Shown here piece by piece: positions 11,086 through 50,586 of a stretch of 64,000 bases of DNA (positions are counted from its first letter, which is position 1; each line of letters begins with the position of its first letter). A program made the translations under genes and the position numbers. A model generated the notes under the pieces. That model was not told where the DNA came from. It saw nothing but the letters and a program-made list of their open reading frames with translations, and searched no databases. Source of the stretch: a virus (Duplodnaviria; Heunggongvirae; Uroviricota; Caudoviricetes); IMG/VR virus record IMGVR_UViG_3300029305_011675; one strand, written 5' to 3'.

Positions 11086-11979
11086 TTATTTTTGCTTAAA
11101 AACATCTGCAACTTCTGAAATTGTTATATATGCGGATGGGTCTTCACTATGTACCGCATCTTTCATCCTTGTGATTTGGAAACGGTTTACTACAATATAA
11201 ATGACTTTTTTGTTGGTATCAGAATAATACCCTTTTGCATCTATAACTGTCATCCCGCTTCCCAGCAATTCTGAAAGTATAGCACAAATTTCATCCGCTT
11301 TATCTGTAATAATCATTGCAGATTTTGAACGGTCTAAACCCTCTACAATAAAGTCTACCGTTTTCAATCCAGCACCATAAGCAACAACAGAATATAGTGG
11401 TAAAATCCAACTTTGCAACATTATACCACACAACATATACAAAATCACATTATATATCATTACAAAAGTTCCAACAGTGATTCCAAGTTTTTTCGCAAAT
11501 ATTACCGCCATAACCTCAATGCCATCTATCGCACCGCCATTGCGAATAGTTATACCGCTTCCTACACCAGATATCATACCACCAAAGATTGCACATAAAA
11601 GCAGGTCTGTGCCCGCCAGAGGCGATGCAATGCTCACATCTATTGGAAGTATATCTGTTATGAGAAATGCCGACAAAGAGTAAATAGCGACCGTATAGAT
11701 AGCATATATTGTGAAGGCAAGTCCTTGTTTTTTAAGGCCAAACAAAAATAGTGGCACATTTAGCATTAAAAGGAAAATTGATAAGTCCCACGGTGTGATT
11801 TGGGACAAGAACACAGATGTGCCAGAAATACCACTGTCATACAAATTAACAGGCGTCAAAAACATAGTAACACCTATTGAATTGATAATTCCTGCTATCG
11901 TAAGGAATATGAAATTTTTCAATTTGATTTTATTTAACTGTTTTTTAAGTTTTTCAGAGTATTTACTCATTTCTTTCAC
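11086..11979 (-). CDS. YitT family membrane protein (DUF2179 C-terminus)
   Basis: Multiple TM helices; GGAIDG, GYYS and DPSAYITISEV motifs. Confidence 0.85.
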   Translation of the reverse strand: MKEMSKYSEKLKKQLNKIKLKNFIFLTIAGIINSIGVTMFLTPVNLYDSGISGTSVFLSQITPWDLSIFLLMLNVPLFLFGLKKQGLAFTIYAIYTVAIYSLSAFLITDILPIDVSIASPLAGTDLLLCAIFGGMISGVGSGITIRNGGAIDGIEVMAVIFAKKLGITVGTFVMIYNVILYMLCGIMLQSWILPLYSVVAYGAGLKTVDFIVEGLDRSKSAMIITDKADEICAILSELLGSGMTVIDAKGYYSDTNKKVIYIVVNRFQITRMKDAVHSEDPSAYITISEVADVFKQK

Positions 11980-12161
11980 CGCCTCACTACTTAATTATGT
12001 TAACTCGGCAACGAAAAATCAATAATTATTTGTGCGAACGTTTACAAAAACGAATATTCATTTCTTACCTATCTACTTGTTTTTTGTTTAGAAAAAGGTT
12101 GACTTTGGTAGTGTTTTATGATATAATTATAGTAGAAAAATCAAAAGGAGATAAGACGATT

Positions 12162-12491
12162 ATGGGATGGAGTTCAGCAGGAAACATTGTGAGCGAGCAA
12201 ACAATTTCGCTTTATAATGCCAACAAATTAGACAAAGAAGCATTGGAAACAATTATAAAACCATATATCGGAACAGATTGTGATACCGATACTTTTTATG
12301 ATAAAGCAAACGATGGCAAAGATGTACACGAAATTATTTGCCTCACTATACTCCCAGAGGAGTATAAAAAGGTGAAAAGCAATCTAATTTTTGCAGAAAA
12401 CACACCGCCAGAAGACAAATTTTTTGTAAACAGCAATAATGGAACTGATTTGTTTAATAAAATCTGGCGCGAAATGTGGAAAATGTGGTAA
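12162..12491 (+). CDS. Hypothetical protein
   Basis: AGGAG RBS; start MGWSSAG; upstream promoter at 12099. Confidence 0.7.
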   Translation: MGWSSAGNIVSEQTISLYNANKLDKEALETIIKPYIGTDCDTDTFYDKANDGKDVHEIICLTILPEEYKKVKSNLIFAENTPPEDKFFVNSNNGTDLFNKIWREMWKMW

Positions 12492-12506
12492 AGGAGAATT
12501 TGCACA

Positions 12507-12800
12507 ATGGGAAGCATTATCAATATTTGGACTGACCCTAAAAAGTGGTATATCGAAACAACCCCAAATCCACTTTTTACCAAAACCACAAGCGAAGAAC
12601 TTCTTAAAGCACATGTCGGTGTTGGAGATTATGATTATCACGGTGCTGACGATGTTGTAATATATGTAAGAAAGTCAATCTACGAAAAACTGATAAGTGG
12701 CGAATATATCGTCAAAAGAAACCAAATCAAGTTGGTTGTAGAAGATAAAAATGGAAATTTAATCAAACCATTTTATGAAGATGGTCAATTTGTATATTAA
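12507..12800 (+). CDS. Hypothetical protein
   Basis: RBS; operonic position. Confidence 0.7.
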   Translation: MGSIINIWTDPKKWYIETTPNPLFTKTTSEELLKAHVGVGDYDYHGADDVVIYVRKSIYEKLISGEYIVKRNQIKLVVEDKNGNLIKPFYEDGQFVY

Positions 12801-42485: not shown

Positions 42486-42673
42486 AGAACAAAAAATGTT
42501 CCTATATCGTTATTTTCAAATGCATAGCACCTGCGACGAACACAGCATCAAATGGAATAATATTGTGCAGGTAATATTTTGATGTACGGTTCAGTATCAA
42601 ATAAATTTGATTTTAAATTCTTTGAAAATAACTACAAAAGTGCCTGCAGTTCGTAGCAGGCACTTATCTTTTT
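42486..42673 (+). ncRNA. Putative RT-associated structured RNA or leader
   Basis: Perfect 12-bp inverted repeat 42509-42520/42621-42632; 10-bp hairpin 42638-42665; alternative pairing 42530-42541/42649-42660. Confidence 0.6.
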
Positions 42674-42686
42674 AGGAGGAAATCAA

Positions 42687-43874
42687 ATGAGCATTATAGA
42701 GTTGTTAAAAAACGAAAATGTTTGGTATGATTTTTTACAATATAAAATTGACGGTGGACACCTACCTAAACGAGACCAAGAAAGATTAGAAGACTATATA
42801 AAAAATAGAGAATACGAACCCGTTGTCGAAGATATTATAGAAGGAAAGCAATTTGCAATTCCAACTATAAAACACATAAACAAGAAAAATTCCACAAAAA
42901 AGAGAACCGTTTTCTTATTTGACGAAAAGGAAAATTTTGTATTAAAAGCACTTATGTTTCTTCTCTATAAATATGACAATATCTTTTCACCAAATTTATA
43001 TTCTTTTAGACAAAATATAAGTGTAAAAACAGCAATTGCCGATATTACCAAAAAAGATATTAAAAATATGTATGGGTACAAGGTAGATATTCATAATTAT
43101 TTCAACTCTGTTGATACAGAAATTATGACTAAAATTTTGCACGACAAAATAAAAGACGATGAGTCATTAGTTAATTTTATTATTTCAATTATTTCAGAAT
43201 CAAAAACTTGGTTCAATGGCAAAATGATAAATTGCGAGAAAGGAATTATGGCAGGCATCCCTATTTCTGGTTTTCTTGCCAATCTTTATCTCGAAGGACT
43301 CGACAGATGGTTTTATGAGCAAGGTATTTTATATGCAAGATATTCAGACGATATTATTGTTTTTGGAGAAACAAAGGAAAAGGTCGATGAGTACAAAAAT
43401 GTTATTAAACAATTTCTAACAAGTCGAAACCTGACTATCAATGAAAGCAAAGAGTTTGAGATAGAGCCAAACGGAAAATTAGACTTCTTGGGTTTCTCTT
43501 TTGTAGATGATAAAATTGATTTGTCCGATGTTGCTTTGAAAAAAATGAAAGACAAAATGAAACGAAAAGCAAAAGCACTTGTTCGTTGGAAGATAAGAAA
43601 CAAGGCAAGCGACGAAAGAGCAATTCGTGCATACATCAAACATTTCAATAAGAAGTTTTTTGACAACCTAAAGAACAATGAAATAACTTGGTGCAGATGG
43701 TATTTTCCAATTATTACAACCGATAATTCGTTGCATATATTGGATGACTATATGTTACAAAACATTCGTTATATTGCCACAGGAAAGCATACAAAGGCAA
43801 ATTATAACCTAAAATATGAAACCATAAAAGAATATGGTTTTAAAAGTTTGGTACATGCTTATTATAATTTTTAG
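42687..43874 (+). CDS. Reverse transcriptase, unclassified (not retron, DGR or group II intron by motifs)
   Basis: KVDIHNYFNSVD, GIMAGIPISGFLANLYL, YARYSDD and DFLGF motifs; AGGAGG RBS. Confidence 0.92.
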   Translation: MSIIELLKNENVWYDFLQYKIDGGHLPKRDQERLEDYIKNREYEPVVEDIIEGKQFAIPTIKHINKKNSTKKRTVFLFDEKENFVLKALMFLLYKYDNIFSPNLYSFRQNISVKTAIADITKKDIKNMYGYKVDIHNYFNSVDTEIMTKILHDKIKDDESLVNFIISIISESKTWFNGKMINCEKGIMAGIPISGFLANLYLEGLDRWFYEQGILYARYSDDIIVFGETKEKVDEYKNVIKQFLTSRNLTINESKEFEIEPNGKLDFLGFSFVDDKIDLSDVALKKMKDKMKRKAKALVRWKIRNKASDERAIRAYIKHFNKKFFDNLKNNEITWCRWYFPIITTDNSLHILDDYMLQNIRYIATGKHTKANYNLKYETIKEYGFKSLVHAYYNF

Positions 43875-46682: not shown

Positions 46683-47894
46683 ATGCAAATAATAGATTTG
46701 TTTGCTGGTTGCGGTGGTTTAAGCACTGGATTTGAGCAGGCGGGTTTTAATATTTCATTGGCAGTTGAAAAAGATTTAGGTGCAACAGAAACTTATAAGT
46801 TTAATCACCCAAACACACAACTTTTAGTAGAAGATATTACCAAATTAAACAATATAACACAATATATCGACAAACCAATTGATGGTGTAATAGGAAGTCC
46901 TCCATGCCAATCATTTTCCTTATCTGGCAACCGAAACCCCAAAGACCCACGAGGTTCTTTATTTATGGACTTTATGAGAATAACTCGTGAAGTTAATGCA
47001 AATTTTTTTGTTATGGAAAACGTAACAGGAATGTTGTCGATGAAAACAGCAAAAGGCGAAAAATATATTGATGTTATTCTCAACGAAATGACAAATAGTG
47101 GATACAATGTTGCTCATTTTGTATTAAATGCGGCAGAATTTGGAGTTCCGCAAAGTAGAAAAAGATTGTTTTTTATTGGTATAAGAAAAGATTTACCTTT
47201 TGACGCAAACTCATTAGAACCAAAAGGTTTTCTATTTGGAGATGACCAAATAACAATAGAACAAGCAATTATGGACTTACCACAAATAAACGCTTGTGAA
47301 GGAGCAGAACAGCAAAATTATAATTGTCTTCCACAAAATGAGTTCCAGAAATATTGTAGGCAAAATAGCGATTATGTTTATAATCATATTGCAATGAAGC
47401 ACACAAAACGTTTAGTGGAAAGATTCAATCAAATTAAATTCGGTCAATCTGTTGCTGATGTACCAGACGAATTTGGTCAAAGAAAAAGAGGAGATGCCTC
47501 TAAATTAAGTGGTAAAAAATATGCCCAAAACAATTTCAGACCGTTTCCGAACAAACCTTCTCCAACAATTCCCGCAAGTTTTCAAAGCAATTTTGTGCAT
47601 CCATTCTTAAACAGGAATTATACTGCACGAGAAGGGGCAAGACTTCAATCTTTCCCCGATACATATATTTTTAAAGGAAACAGAACCAATATGTCTTGGG
47701 AAAAGAACCTATCCCAATACCAACAGATTGGAAATGCAGTCCCACCTCTATTAGCAAAGGCAATTGCAGACACCATACAAAACTACGTGAACCTCACACG
47801 ACTAAAGTCGCGTGCTTCTCCGCTTGTTATTTACAGAGACTCTCTATCTACAGATACGACGCAAAATTCAGGAGAAAAGAACCGAAGTTCTTAA
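46683..47894 (+). CDS. C5-cytosine DNA methyltransferase; last codons replaced by read-through into TnpB element 2
   Basis: DLFAGCGG, PPCQSFS, ENV, QSRKR, RLQSFPD and GNAVPP motifs. Confidence 0.92.
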   Translation: MQIIDLFAGCGGLSTGFEQAGFNISLAVEKDLGATETYKFNHPNTQLLVEDITKLNNITQYIDKPIDGVIGSPPCQSFSLSGNRNPKDPRGSLFMDFMRITREVNANFFVMENVTGMLSMKTAKGEKYIDVILNEMTNSGYNVAHFVLNAAEFGVPQSRKRLFFIGIRKDLPFDANSLEPKGFLFGDDQITIEQAIMDLPQINACEGAEQQNYNCLPQNEFQKYCRQNSDYVYNHIAMKHTKRLVERFNQIKFGQSVADVPDEFGQRKRGDASKLSGKKYAQNNFRPFPNKPSPTIPASFQSNFVHPFLNRNYTAREGARLQSFPDTYIFKGNRTNMSWEKNLSQYQQIGNAVPPLLAKAIADTIQNYVNLTRLKSRASPLVIYRDSLSTDTTQNSGEKNRSS

Positions 47895-49333
47895 ACCCGC
47901 ATTAAGGTTAATTAGTGTAGACAAAGTGCATTGGGTTCTTTTCGCAACAGAAGGAACTTTTGCCTCCAGTTGCGACCTTACCGTTGCCGACAAGGGTTTT
48001 AGTATTTCTCTTATAAAATATCGTGCTCCGATATTATAAGATGCATTTAAATCACTGTGGTATTGTTTACCATTACCGAGAGTGCAGATACTATAATTAT
48101 CTTTCTCTCGTTTTACTTCACCACTACCATCGAATGATAGTTTGCTTGTATTCCAAGCACAGATGTGCGAAATGCGAATTCCCATTCGATGTGCTTTGCT
48201 TGTAACAATACCCTGAATATAGTTTTTTCTCCACATTGTAAGTTTTTGTTTCTTACTGCCAGAGATTTTGCCATTGATATCAAGATGCTCAAAAACGATA
48301 CAATGTACAGCGTTTTGAACAGCACAATCTACTATTGCTTGTGCAATTTTAATAGAATGCTGTTCATTACAGTTCTTGGCATAACTCCACAGTTTAGAAA
48401 CAGATTGATGTTTCTTCTGTTTCTTTTTAATCTTATTCAGTGTATGATACAGACGGTCTTTATCACTCGCAAAGTTGATAAACTTTCTATTGAGGACAGT
48501 TCCGTCCGCAGTCATTACCGAACAAACTGCATCGTTATTGATACCAAGGTCAACTGCTAATACTTTTTGGTTTTCTGCTTTTACTTCATTCAGTTTGACC
48601 TTTTCAGTAAAAGCAAATCTCAAATAGTATTTATTATATCTTCTCTCCAAAATTGGAGCAGACATCTCTTTATTTTGACAATACTTCCGAATATACTTAA
48701 TATCCGTAGCACGAAGATGCACTGGATACCAAACCCAATCATTGTTAATATAAAGTTTTAGATTAACAATGTTAGGATTATCCGTTTCTTCATAAGTATT
48801 ATCTCTATAGAAAATTGGACAACTATAATGTTTGGTCTGCAATCTTGGTGGTTTGCCAATCTTGCCATTCTTTTCCCAATTTTCATAGTTGCTTCTATAA
48901 GAAGATACAATGCCGATTGCATCGGCAATGACTCCTCTACGAAAGTAACTTGGCATTTTGTAAAACAATTGGTCGAACTCTGGGTATTTTGCCTCATTAT
49001 CCTTTGTCGTATGGATAAGATGTTCAACCAAATTATTTTTGCGATTGCCTTTTAGTGCAGAAATACTATCCCACTCATTATTTATAATGGGGATTAAGAA
49101 AGTGAGTGCTTCTCTATATTTATTTACGGTTGGTTTTAACATTTTGTTAATACCAACAATTTGAACCTTATAACTCGTAGTTATGTTCATTCTTTAATAA
49201 GCACTTCCTTTCTGTTTAAGATAGATATATTATAACATATTTTCTTAACAATTGCAACCTTTTTATTTAAGAATAATAAGAAACATCGCCTTACTCACGA
49301 CTAAAGTCACGAGAATGCGGCGATGTTGTTTTA
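47787..49333 (-). mobile_element. IS200/IS605 family non-autonomous element (tnpB only), copy 2
   Basis: Same ends as copy 1; excision restores the MTase end NY-FKNI-stop. Confidence 0.88.
47868..49190 (-). CDS. tnpB: TnpB RNA-guided nuclease
   Basis: RuvC D-E-D intact; highly similar but not identical to copy 1. Confidence 0.88.
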   Translation of the reverse strand: MNITTSYKVQIVGINKMLKPTVNKYREALTFLIPIINNEWDSISALKGNRKNNLVEHLIHTTKDNEAKYPEFDQLFYKMPSYFRRGVIADAIGIVSSYRSNYENWEKNGKIGKPPRLQTKHYSCPIFYRDNTYEETDNPNIVNLKLYINNDWVWYPVHLRATDIKYIRKYCQNKEMSAPILERRYNKYYLRFAFTEKVKLNEVKAENQKVLAVDLGINNDAVCSVMTADGTVLNRKFINFASDKDRLYHTLNKIKKKQKKHQSVSKLWSYAKNCNEQHSIKIAQAIVDCAVQNAVHCIVFEHLDINGKISGSKKQKLTMWRKNYIQGIVTSKAHRMGIRISHICAWNTSKLSFDGSGEVKREKDNYSICTLGNGKQYHSDLNASYNIGARYFIREILKPLSATVRSQLEAKVPSVAKRTQCTLSTLINLNAGLRTSVLFS

Positions 49334-49423: not shown

Positions 49424-49452
49424 TTGACATTAAGGTTTATCTGTGGTATAAT
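49424..49452 (+). promoter_or_regulatory. Consensus sigmaA promoter of the ncRNA operon
   Basis: TTGACA-17 nt-TATAAT with extended -10 TG. Confidence 0.85.
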
Positions 49453-49474: not shown

Positions 49475-49550
49475 GCTCGTGTAGCTCAGTTGGAAGAGCA
49501 CCAGACTTTTAATCTGGGTGTCGAGGGTTCGAGCCCCTCCACGGGCACCA
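49475..49550 (+). tRNA. tRNA-Lys(UUU)
   Basis: Canonical cloverleaf; anticodon arm CCAGA-CTTTTAA-TCTGG; encoded CCA. Confidence 0.95.
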
Positions 49551-49553
49551 TAA

Positions 49554-49820
49554 TAAAACAGTTCCGAAAGGGTTTAATGAAACATCTGCTTCGACAGTAG
49601 ACTGACTTCAAGTAGGACTTGCAGAGAGACTGCAAGGAAATGTGGGACTCCTTATTAAGAATGGAGAGAGACGGGAAAAGAGTCGGGAAAACCGAATGAA
49701 ACCCGAAAACGAGATTAGACTTGGGCGAAACACCAAGTATCGACTGCTCGGCTGTAAATGATGGATATAATCTACCACTATCGCAGGCGCTTGAAATAGC
49801 GGAAATCACAAACTGTTTTA
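49554..49820 (+). ncRNA. ~267-nt structured RNA of unknown family
   Basis: Closing helix TAAAACAGTT/AACTGTTTTA; hairpins CTTGCAG/CTGCAAG, TCGG/CCGA and ACTTGG/CCAAGT. Confidence 0.6.
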
Positions 49821-49827
49821 TTTTTAT

Positions 49828-49945
49828 GTATCTGTATCGTGCTGGAAAACGAGGTTGTAAATACCAGTAACTACTTCGAGAAGTCATATCGAAGCAAGAC
49901 AGGTTGGCAATTGCGGTGTTGGTTCGAGTCCAACCAGATGCACCA
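49828..49945 (+). ncRNA. tRNA-like RNA with ~48-nt expanded anticodon loop
   Basis: Acceptor GTATCTG/CAGATGC + ACCA; D-arm TCGT/ACGA; T-arm GTTGG-TTCGAGT-CCAAC. Confidence 0.7.
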
Positions 49946-50119
49946 AGAGGCAGTAGCCCTAAATAGAGATTGTGACGAGTGCGAAATGCTTAAATAACCC
50001 GCAGAAAACATCTCCGTATCGCGCGAACGAAGATGTGGTTAACCCGAAGCAATCGAGGGGCGGAGTCACTGTTCGATATACAAACTCGGTGTTGGTGAAA
50101 CCCCAACCTGCCTCTAACA
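49946..50119 (+). ncRNA. tRNA-like RNA with large internal domain
   Basis: AGAGGCAG/CTGCCTCT stem adjacent to a T-like arm GTTGG-TGAAACC-CCAAC. Confidence 0.55.
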
Positions 50120-50124
50120 AATAT

Positions 50125-50188
50125 GTGCTGTCGTTTAAATGGAAGACGCGAAAAAGCATGATTGGGTCGATACCAGTCCAGCACACCA
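50125..50188 (+). ncRNA. Minimal tRNA-like RNA with vestigial anticodon arm
   Basis: GTGCTG/CAGCAC + ACCA; D-like arm; T-like arm ATTGG-GTCGATA-CCAGT. Confidence 0.6.
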
Positions 50189-50549
50189 ACAAAAGGAAGG
50201 TAGGCTTAAGAGTAGCCATCCTTTAAAGAGTGGGGAGTAGAAGAACCTGCATTTGCGCAACGTGGAGTTCAAGAAAAGGCGGGTCAGGCCAACCGAGGTC
50301 GCCGTACAAACTACAGGGAAACGAAAGCAGAACGGTCACAATACAGCAATAGTTTAGGAAGCAGTTGAAATACTGTGGAGCGTCTTGCGCTGTGTGATGC
50401 GAGACCACAAGTAGTGTGTAATATGGTAAGTTTCCAAAACGCGAGAGACGCTGGGAATTAAGTAAGCGATGCAATGTTCGGTAAAAGCTAACTTACAATG
50501 CCATATGTGCCCTCTGACCCTTTGGTGTAGCAACACACCTTTTGTACCA
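50189..50549 (+). ncRNA. CCA-ended RNA containing a split mimic of 23S rRNA H43-H44 (uL11-binding domain)
   Basis: AGGAAGGTAGGCTTAAGAGTAGCCATCCTTTAAAGAGTG ... GTGTAGCAACACAC; closing stem ACAAAAGG/CCTTTTGT + ACCA. Confidence 0.75.
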
Positions 50550-50553
50550 AAAG

Positions 50554-50586
50554 AAAAGTCCGTTGATTATTCAACGGACTTTTTTC
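50554..50586. terminator. Bidirectional terminator between the ncRNA operon and pyk
   Basis: AAAAGTCCGTTGA/TCAACGGACTTTT. Confidence 0.85.

Follow-up and report, generated by a model that had tools for sequence, protein, structure and literature searches.

We report a 357-nt RNA, encoded at positions 50189-50545 of the window (the whole 64,000-nt stretch of DNA that was analysed), whose two ends form a fold like that of the GTPase-associated centre (GAC) of 23S rRNA and hold between them an altered sarcin-ricin loop (SRL) hairpin (Table 1). On comparative grounds we are highly confident that the ends rebuild the H43-H44 fold of 23S rRNA, its tertiary contacts included. The RNA belongs to a family that is widespread in phages and apparently undescribed. 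Mimicry of rRNA is known from mRNA leaders, and mimicry of tRNA from many RNAs; in the open literature we found no description of this family, nor of any free non-coding RNA that copies the factor-docking centre of the ribosome.

Table 1. Features of the GAC-mimic RNA and of the operon that encodes it (window positions; E. coli numbering for 23S rRNA)
Feature	Position	Strand	Remarks
Sigma-70-type promoter, extended -10	49424..49452	+	12/12 perfect match; retained in orthologue L409
tRNA-Lys(UUU), first operon unit	49475..49550	+	CCA encoded
~265-nt structured RNA with terminal stem, same operon	49553..49820	+	84% identity to L409
Three tRNA-shaped units without normal anticodon arm	49828-49945, 49947-50118, 50126-50188	+	
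Closing stem, 5' strand (top of H42)	50189..50196	+	8 bp with 50538-50545; G1055 = 50196
H43 copy (1056-1081)	50197..50222	+	U1060 = 50201, A1067 = 50208, G1071 = 50212, U1072 = 50213
1082-1086 mini-hairpin (U-A trans pair) and H44 5' strand (1087-1090)	50223..50231	+	A1088 = 50229; contacts as in PMC2952862
Insert, between U1090 and G1091	50232..50524	+	293 nt
Basal helix of insert	50232-34/50518-20	+	Covaries
k-junction-like three-way junction	Tandem GA 50235-36, 50516-17; 3-nt bulge 50513-15; helices 50237-40/50311-14, 50316-18/50510-12	+	
Hairpin with UGAAA T-loop-type loop	50362..50375	+	Conserved in most long members
SRL arm	50423..50504	+	Anchoring helix 50423-26/50501-04; stem 50430-35/50453-58; GAGA 50443-46, C-G closed
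UUUG linker	50521-24	+	Conserved
H44 hairpin (1091-1103)	50525..50537	+	U1092 = 50526, A1095 = 50529, A1099 = 50533
Closing stem, 3' strand	50538..50545	+	
ACCA after closing stem	50546..50549	+	Window copy; no L409 counterpart; not a family trait
Intrinsic terminator, bidirectional	50552..50585	+	Also serves convergent pyruvate kinase gene

The 5' half of the RNA matches Salmonella 23S rRNA (positions 1055-1090; reference L145) at 27 of 36 positions, against 24 of 36 for the best of 100 shuffles of the window, and BLAST found similarity between the mimic and 23S rRNA over 41 nt (E 1.5e-4). Both loop adenines contacted by thiostrepton and factors, A1067 and A1095, are present in the window copy, where U1090 (50231) pairs with A1101 (50535). 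A search of 50189-50545 against Rfam 15 returned no family at the gathering score (GOLLD, ROOL, LSU rRNA, group I introns, Y RNA and others), nothing at E values up to 10 and no LSU match. Folding of the single sequence was uninformative (z -0.08), and the support for the fold is therefore comparative. The first-pass annotation had recognized a GAC split by an insert of ~290 nt; both halves (5', 50191-50232; 3', 50525-50544), the closing stem, the ACCA and the terminator all lie where it had placed them, and the insert measures 293 nt.

Two pattern scans of viral contigs found at least 118 and at least 120 such stretches, and a third, 5'-anchored scan found 61; the parsed set holds at least 205 distinct elements in at least 145 lineages (70% insert identity). 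Members share a common plan, with a paired but freely varying closing stem of 2-26 bp, H43, an insert of ~29-370 nt after U1090, and H44; the insert opens with a helix and closes with UUUG in 139 of the 145 lineages among the matches listed. Carriers include phages of Pseudomonas, Aeromonas, Yersinia, Erwinia, Cronobacter, Xanthomonas, Ralstonia and Acinetobacter as well as the Lak megaphages, all 15 records of which (MK250015-MK250029) have a long SRL-type member ~73% identical to L002. The cultured phages pf16, UNO-G1W1, Astolliot, GAP32, fHe-Yen9, XacN1, RSP15 and ME3 carry the family, which is thus testable now. BLAST of the operon matched unannotated gaps in tRNA arrays of cultured phages, these matches being confined to the 5' half of the mimic, and among the matches listed a tRNA lies within 600 nt on the same strand in 89 of 166 and on the opposite strand in 1 of 166. 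No conserved protein partner was found in cis, the top clusters reaching 12 and 10 of the 145 lineages among the matches listed, one of them HNH-like. Two members per locus, some in tandem, were seen in L012 (phage Astolliot), L062, L070 and L275, where the inserts and triple states of the two differ.

In rRNA the GAC is held by the base triples 1071/1091-1100 and 1072/1092-1099 and by a trans pair 1082-1086 (PMC2952862, PMC8614978). The triple 1072/1092/1099 reads CCG in 73, UUA in 66 and UUG in 3 of the 145 lineages among the matches listed, with 3 discordant, so that 142 are concordant; positions 1072 and 1092 lie on opposite sides of the insert, yet switch together. As the 3' positions in the 145-lineage tallies were set in part by the search patterns, the 5'-anchored sample provides the unbiased test, and there U1072 predicts U1092 in 37 of 38 members, the exception being a misplaced 3' half. 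Among independent close pairs, 1072 differs whenever 1092 differs (17/17, the window and its orthologue L409 included). The other triple has G1071 in 143 of the 145 lineages among the matches listed, the trans 1082-1086 pair is UA in 91, CG in 25 and AU in 18 of these listed lineages, and U1060-A1088 occurs in 142 of them. Further covarying pairs are 1058-1080, 1057-1081, 1064-1074 and 1055-1104, and H43 and H44 are both present as covarying helices, with the top of H42 closing them. Conservation across the family reaches 100% for U1060, 99% for A1077 and 98% for A1088; A1095 is retained in 35 of 38 members of the 5'-anchored sample. Substitutions that had been called compensatory from the window alone are compensatory across the family alignment too, and covariation among homologues extends to a three-position tertiary contact. 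The versions U1072/U1092-A1099 and A1082-U1086 are also found in authentic archaeal LSU rRNA from a metagenome scan, so a functioning ribosome can accommodate these swaps, and the C-G version of the triple is that of Haloarcula rRNA (PMC2952862). Metagenomic LSU rRNAs with U1072/U1092-A1099, A1082-U1086 and A1087-U1102 were seen in L270-L272, L274, L276 and L277, of which L271 and L277 are archaeal by Rfam.

A related element, L409, shares its gene order with the window and has all of the operon, which is 78.5% identical. From the window copy to that of L409, the triple 1072/1092-1099 goes from U/U-A to C/C-G and the 1058-1080 pair from G-C to U-A, and compensatory changes are seen in two insert helices. 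Identity reaches 151 of 160 positions in the insert core (50311-50470) and 42 of 43 in the SRL hairpin arm, the comparison level being 75 identical of 162 four-fold sites in the neighbouring pyruvate kinase gene; the RNA is under strong selection. The view taken at first pass, of a stand-alone, selected fold rather than a decayed piece of rRNA, is borne out by the secondary and tertiary covariation, by a promoter and terminator of the RNA's own and by the lack of an Rfam match. A functionless rRNA fragment, decayed or captured, would account for the 41-nt similarity to 23S rRNA, but it is refuted by covariation at three tertiary positions and further contradicted by a closing stem that is free to vary yet paired, an insertion site that is always the same, strong purifying selection and an operon of its own, and we give it practically no chance of being correct.

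Compared with the 23S GAC (H42-H44, E. coli 1051-1108; the 58-nt uL11/thiostrepton domain), the mimic keeps, or varies in a compensatory manner, H43, H44, 1082-1086, U1060-A1088, both base triples, G1093-A1098 and A1095. It differs in being free-standing and not a continuous 58-nt domain within LSU rRNA, in being split between 1090 and 1091 by a branch of 29-370 nt (293 nt here) with a UUUG linker, in having A1101 and often G1067, and in having a plain stem without Kt-42 for H42. A1101 (98%) pairs with U1090 in 142 of the 145 lineages listed, whereas rRNA has U1101. The single insertion site, after a U and ending in the G of UUUG (in 139 of the 145 lineages listed), recalls group I boundaries, and the two ends, once joined, would give an unbroken GAC, so that the insert might be seen as an intron, splicing of which would yield a continuous 58-nt GAC, perhaps as a patch for damaged 23S rRNA. 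The shortest inserts, however, are simple hairpins of 29-45 nt without a catalytic core, there is no Rfam intron match, no insert-less copy occurs in the 5'-anchored viral sample, and A1101, unlike rRNA U1101 and the unsplit cyanobacterial form described below, looks like an adaptation to a retained branch; an intron is in our opinion highly improbable.

Position 1067 is A in 69% and G in 26% of the family (G in L409), and A1067-A1070 vary, so that the tip of H43 appears to be under relaxed selection, whereas the uL11-C-terminal face does not vary. Since the uL11-binding face is intact, the RNA probably picks up host uL11, although the fold itself also depends on the conserved bases that face uL11, and conservation therefore cannot separate folding from binding. 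Binding of uL10, which the first-pass annotation had also put forward, is not borne out: the Kt-42 site positions 1047-48 and 1110-11 are unconserved, as is the whole of 1046-1050 and 1109-1113, and a plain stem replaces the H42 kink-turn. The isolated 58-nt domain is known to bind uL11 tightly, and the stringent response requires this protein. The RNA might thus act purely as a sponge that titrates uL11, leaving uL11-poor ribosomes on which RelA-dependent (p)ppGpp would be blunted while translation continues, and this would fit both the contrast between a variable H43 tip and a constant uL11-C-terminal face and the fact that the GAC half is the sole part common to all members. It leaves the SRL arm and the 94%-conserved insert core unexplained, however, and ribosome-held uL11 would be unlikely to exchange fast in a lytic cycle; we regard such a sponge as distinctly unlikely.

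The insert is on sequence comparison a conserved scaffold with an SRL-derived hairpin, a feature overlooked at first reading. Translation factors contact two rRNA elements, the GAC and the SRL, and ribotoxins attack the latter, reading its GAGA loop and the bulged G2655 (PMC2896532). The window insert is homologous to the SRL-bearing long inserts (nhmmer E 3e-5) and aligns to them block by block, through the junction, the T-loop-type hairpin and the anchored SRL arm. In the structure of the long subfamily (20 members), 94.7% of cells are paired and 29 of 39 pairs are compensatory, which exceeds 500 of 500 shuffles (slid controls 39-47%); related sequences inflate compensatory counts, so that the independent-pair test carries more weight. 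An SRL 12-mer with two or fewer mismatches is found in 20 inserts among the matches listed, all of 310-358 nt, against 2.6 in shuffled inserts; by lineage, again among the matches listed, it is present in 10 of 14 with inserts of at least 300 nt and in 0 of 131 with shorter ones, a tally in which L280 was mis-parsed as having a short insert. Of 125 SRL-pattern matches, 96 were unrelated to the family. The inserts of L028 and L079 each contain two SRL-like copies.

Set against the SRL of rRNA (H95, E. coli 2654-2665), the long relatives have an intact 12-mer in a covarying stem, compensatory at 5 of 6 pairs, and C-G closes the GAGA in 20 of 20 long members. In the window copy the stem with its flanks and C-GAGA-G cap (50442-50447) persists at the homologous position, but the letters of the bulged-G (loop E) motif (2654-2657 with 2663-2665) have drifted and the motif is missing; in the window copy and L409 alike the 12-mer has more than three mismatches. 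The loop of the mimic sits in the H44 branch and that of rRNA in domain VI. A copied domain VI was considered for the insert and rejected, as the insert has no BLAST similarity to 23S rRNA and its T-loop precedes the SRL, the reverse of the order in domain VI. The base of the insert resembles a k-junction (3-nt bulge, tandem G-A pairs and a third helix in the non-bulged strand; PMC5061560), which in the mimic is known as a sequence pattern; the pattern occurs in 29 of the 145 lineages among the matches listed, and it and the flanking helices covary. We infer that the SRL hairpin is placed next to the GAC in three dimensions. A different long-range helix had been proposed for the insert (50281-87/50514-20). 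The 7-bp complement exists, but it is out of register in L409, which shows only a shifted 6/7 G-rich match, no column pair of the family alignment supports it, and across the family its 3' strand is taken up by the covarying basal helix, with which it is incompatible, and by the tandem G-A pairs of the junction; as a conserved fold it was rejected; by nearest-neighbour energy the structure with this helix scores -88.6 and the family fold -84.5 kcal/mol, and the helix could be an alternative conformer of the window copy.

The mimic is the last unit of an operon that runs from a promoter through tRNA-Lys and tRNA mimics to the terminator, and the 1.1 kb between promoter and terminator contain no conserved ORF. 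The CCA end of the third tRNA-shaped unit directly adjoins the start of the mimic; because the mimic starts right after this CCA, its 5' end could be made there, through release by tRNA-processing enzymes. The first of the tRNA-shaped units has an enlarged anticodon arm, the second is enlarged in the region of the D-arm, and the third is a mini form that lacks the anticodon arm; the CCA of the first and third is retained in L409. The structured RNA at 49553-49820 has no Rfam family at the gathering score (RAGATH-33 scores weakly, far under threshold); it is GNRA-rich and shares a 10-nt word with 23S domain I (around position 190 of L145), for which BLAST gave no alignment.

Leaders of ribosomal-protein mRNAs that mimic rRNA, such as the L10 leader RF00557, are likewise RNAs that copy an r-protein site off the ribosome. 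Those are cis-acting leaders of r-protein operons, whereas the mimic is the terminal unit of a non-coding operon; a leader was rejected for the window RNA, downstream of which there is no ORF on its strand and no ribosomal-protein operon, only the terminator and then the convergent pyruvate kinase gene. T4 species 1 and 2 (rnaC/rnaD), GOLLD, ROOL and the tRNA-mimicking YrlA also lie among tRNAs, with release by tRNA-processing enzymes probable, but the mimic has no sequence or model match to them and none copies the GAC or the SRL; on comparison, T4 rnaC/rnaD are not members of the family. A CCA-ended, tRNA-like stable RNA of the T4 rnaC/rnaD type was also rejected. The CCA end had at first been read as a trait of the RNA, but CCA is found in 9 of 186 listed members, about chance level, and does not follow the closing stem in L409, so that it is not a property of the RNA class, in which the length of that stem varies as noted above.

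A second RNA that joins the two sites was found in cyanobacteria. It stands alone, is ~200 nt long and places an unsplit GAC after a perfect SRL. The first example came from an Aphanothece MAG; a locus lies at L137:5440-5670 (minus strand) and further loci are L413-L442. A pattern scan of genome contigs gave 15 chance matches and one cyanobacterial locus, and within the phylum the RNA occurs at 39 places in 38 of 401 genomes. The SRL 12-mer is perfect in 30 of 30 loci; apart from it no homology to the phage inserts was detectable, and there was no Rfam match. These 30 loci lie in tRNA arrays (16), in a vWA/ThiF cassette (9) or beside the RNA 2'-phosphotransferase Tpt1 (4). In Anabaena, translational stress induces expression of the trn array (PMC8421152, PMC10272220), and a search of both papers by term turned up no SRL-GAC RNA; the PCC 7120 trn array, the one studied experimentally, lacks the two-site RNA, and the link to stress is thus by context only.

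The cassette raises the idea that the fold is a handle for a non-ribosomal partner, for instance a Ro60-like vWA protein in RNA surveillance, comparable with the tRNA mimicry of Y RNA. Besides the 9 of 30 cyanobacterial loci, DUF2828/DUF7788 proteins are found within 5 kb of a member in 5 of the 145 phage lineages listed (L170, L171, L295, L231 and L061), in L295 directly upstream, and the operon neighbours of the mimic are tRNA mimics. Against this, the window contains no DUF2828 or vWA homologue, none is nearby in 140 of the 145 lineages listed, the loci being short, and Pfam gives only vWA for the cassette protein. We consider a handle of this kind very unlikely.

That the two rRNA elements contacted by factors (PMC2896532) are joined in two architectures without detectable homology beyond the SRL 12-mer may also point to an active miniature factor-binding centre, in which the uL11-bound GAC and SRL arms would dock and trigger or trap EF-G, EF-Tu, IF2, BipA, LepA or RelA, so that translation is retuned off the ribosome rather than attackers soaked up. 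A1095 is kept in about 95-97% of the family, and the conserved scaffold with its putative kinked junction could set the geometry. However, 131 of the 145 lineages listed have short inserts without an SRL, down to hairpins of 29 nt, the SRL of the window departs from the canonical form, A1067-A1070 are variable, a Kt-42 through which the uL10/bL12 stalk could be recruited is absent, and wasted GTP would harm the phage. This is rather unlikely, and to the same modest degree we entertain the form of it in which the long members, loaded with uL11 and engaging GTPases or RelA directly, are ribosome-free factor-binding centres that phages and cyanobacteria built independently, with the non-canonical but strictly conserved hairpin of this lineage retuned (for example, to bind but remain uncut, or to trigger no hydrolysis).

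Our current working hypothesis, to which we give an even chance of being right, is that the RNA is a decoy of the ribosome's factor-docking centre that binds uL11. It would be cut from a polycistronic transcript of tRNA and tRNA mimics and, away from the ribosome, adopt the fold of the 23S GAC, with the insert branching from H44 via the predicted kinked junction and displaying the SRL-derived hairpin as a second ribosomal landmark. Loaded with uL11, it may then decoy proteins that recognize the docking surface, for instance defence toxins directed at rRNA or a stress sensor such as RelA, with the presumed outcome that host translation keeps running for the element. The tRNA-Lys(UUU), the tRNA shapes without anticodon and the RNA-repair genes beside the sister RNA favour a role in counter-defence or stress protection. 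tRNA-Lys(UUU) is a target of PrrC and PARIS; we know of no bacterial defence toxin that targets H43-H44. Also against the decoy, about 90% of lineages among the matches listed lack an SRL, and the SRL of the window lacks the bulged-G motif read by sarcin-type toxins (PMC2896532). Should the proposed role be correct, it would add a new layer to the contest between phage and host over translation and would point to undiscovered host factors that attack or sense the docking surface. The family in any case offers a series of natural mutants of a textbook RNA tertiary fold, and its long members allow one to ask whether the GAC and SRL alone are enough to bind or activate a translational GTPase.

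The window is part of an element of more than 200 kb, carried by contigs of 194-215 kb; of 24 blocks none is longer than 1 Mb. Its gene content (pilin-like adhesins, TnpB, methylases, PARP, macro domain, NAD ligase and pyruvate kinase) suggests a large mobile element, and no capsid or terminase genes were seen among the annotated genes of the window and its flanks, so that the element could be either a phage or plasmid-like. Near-identical TnpB copies lie at 21734-23056 and 47868-49190, with an L409 counterpart at 11448-12602; TnpB adjoins the RNA operon in both related elements, but on opposite sides. At 42525-43874 an Rfam RT-5 RNA precedes a gene for a reverse transcriptase, the two lying among genes for LRR adhesins with prepilin signals (1832, 39054, 40784 and 43995). 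At 27143-28831 (minus strand) a PARP-domain protein adjoins a macro-domain protein, possibly a writer and eraser pair for ADP-ribosylation.
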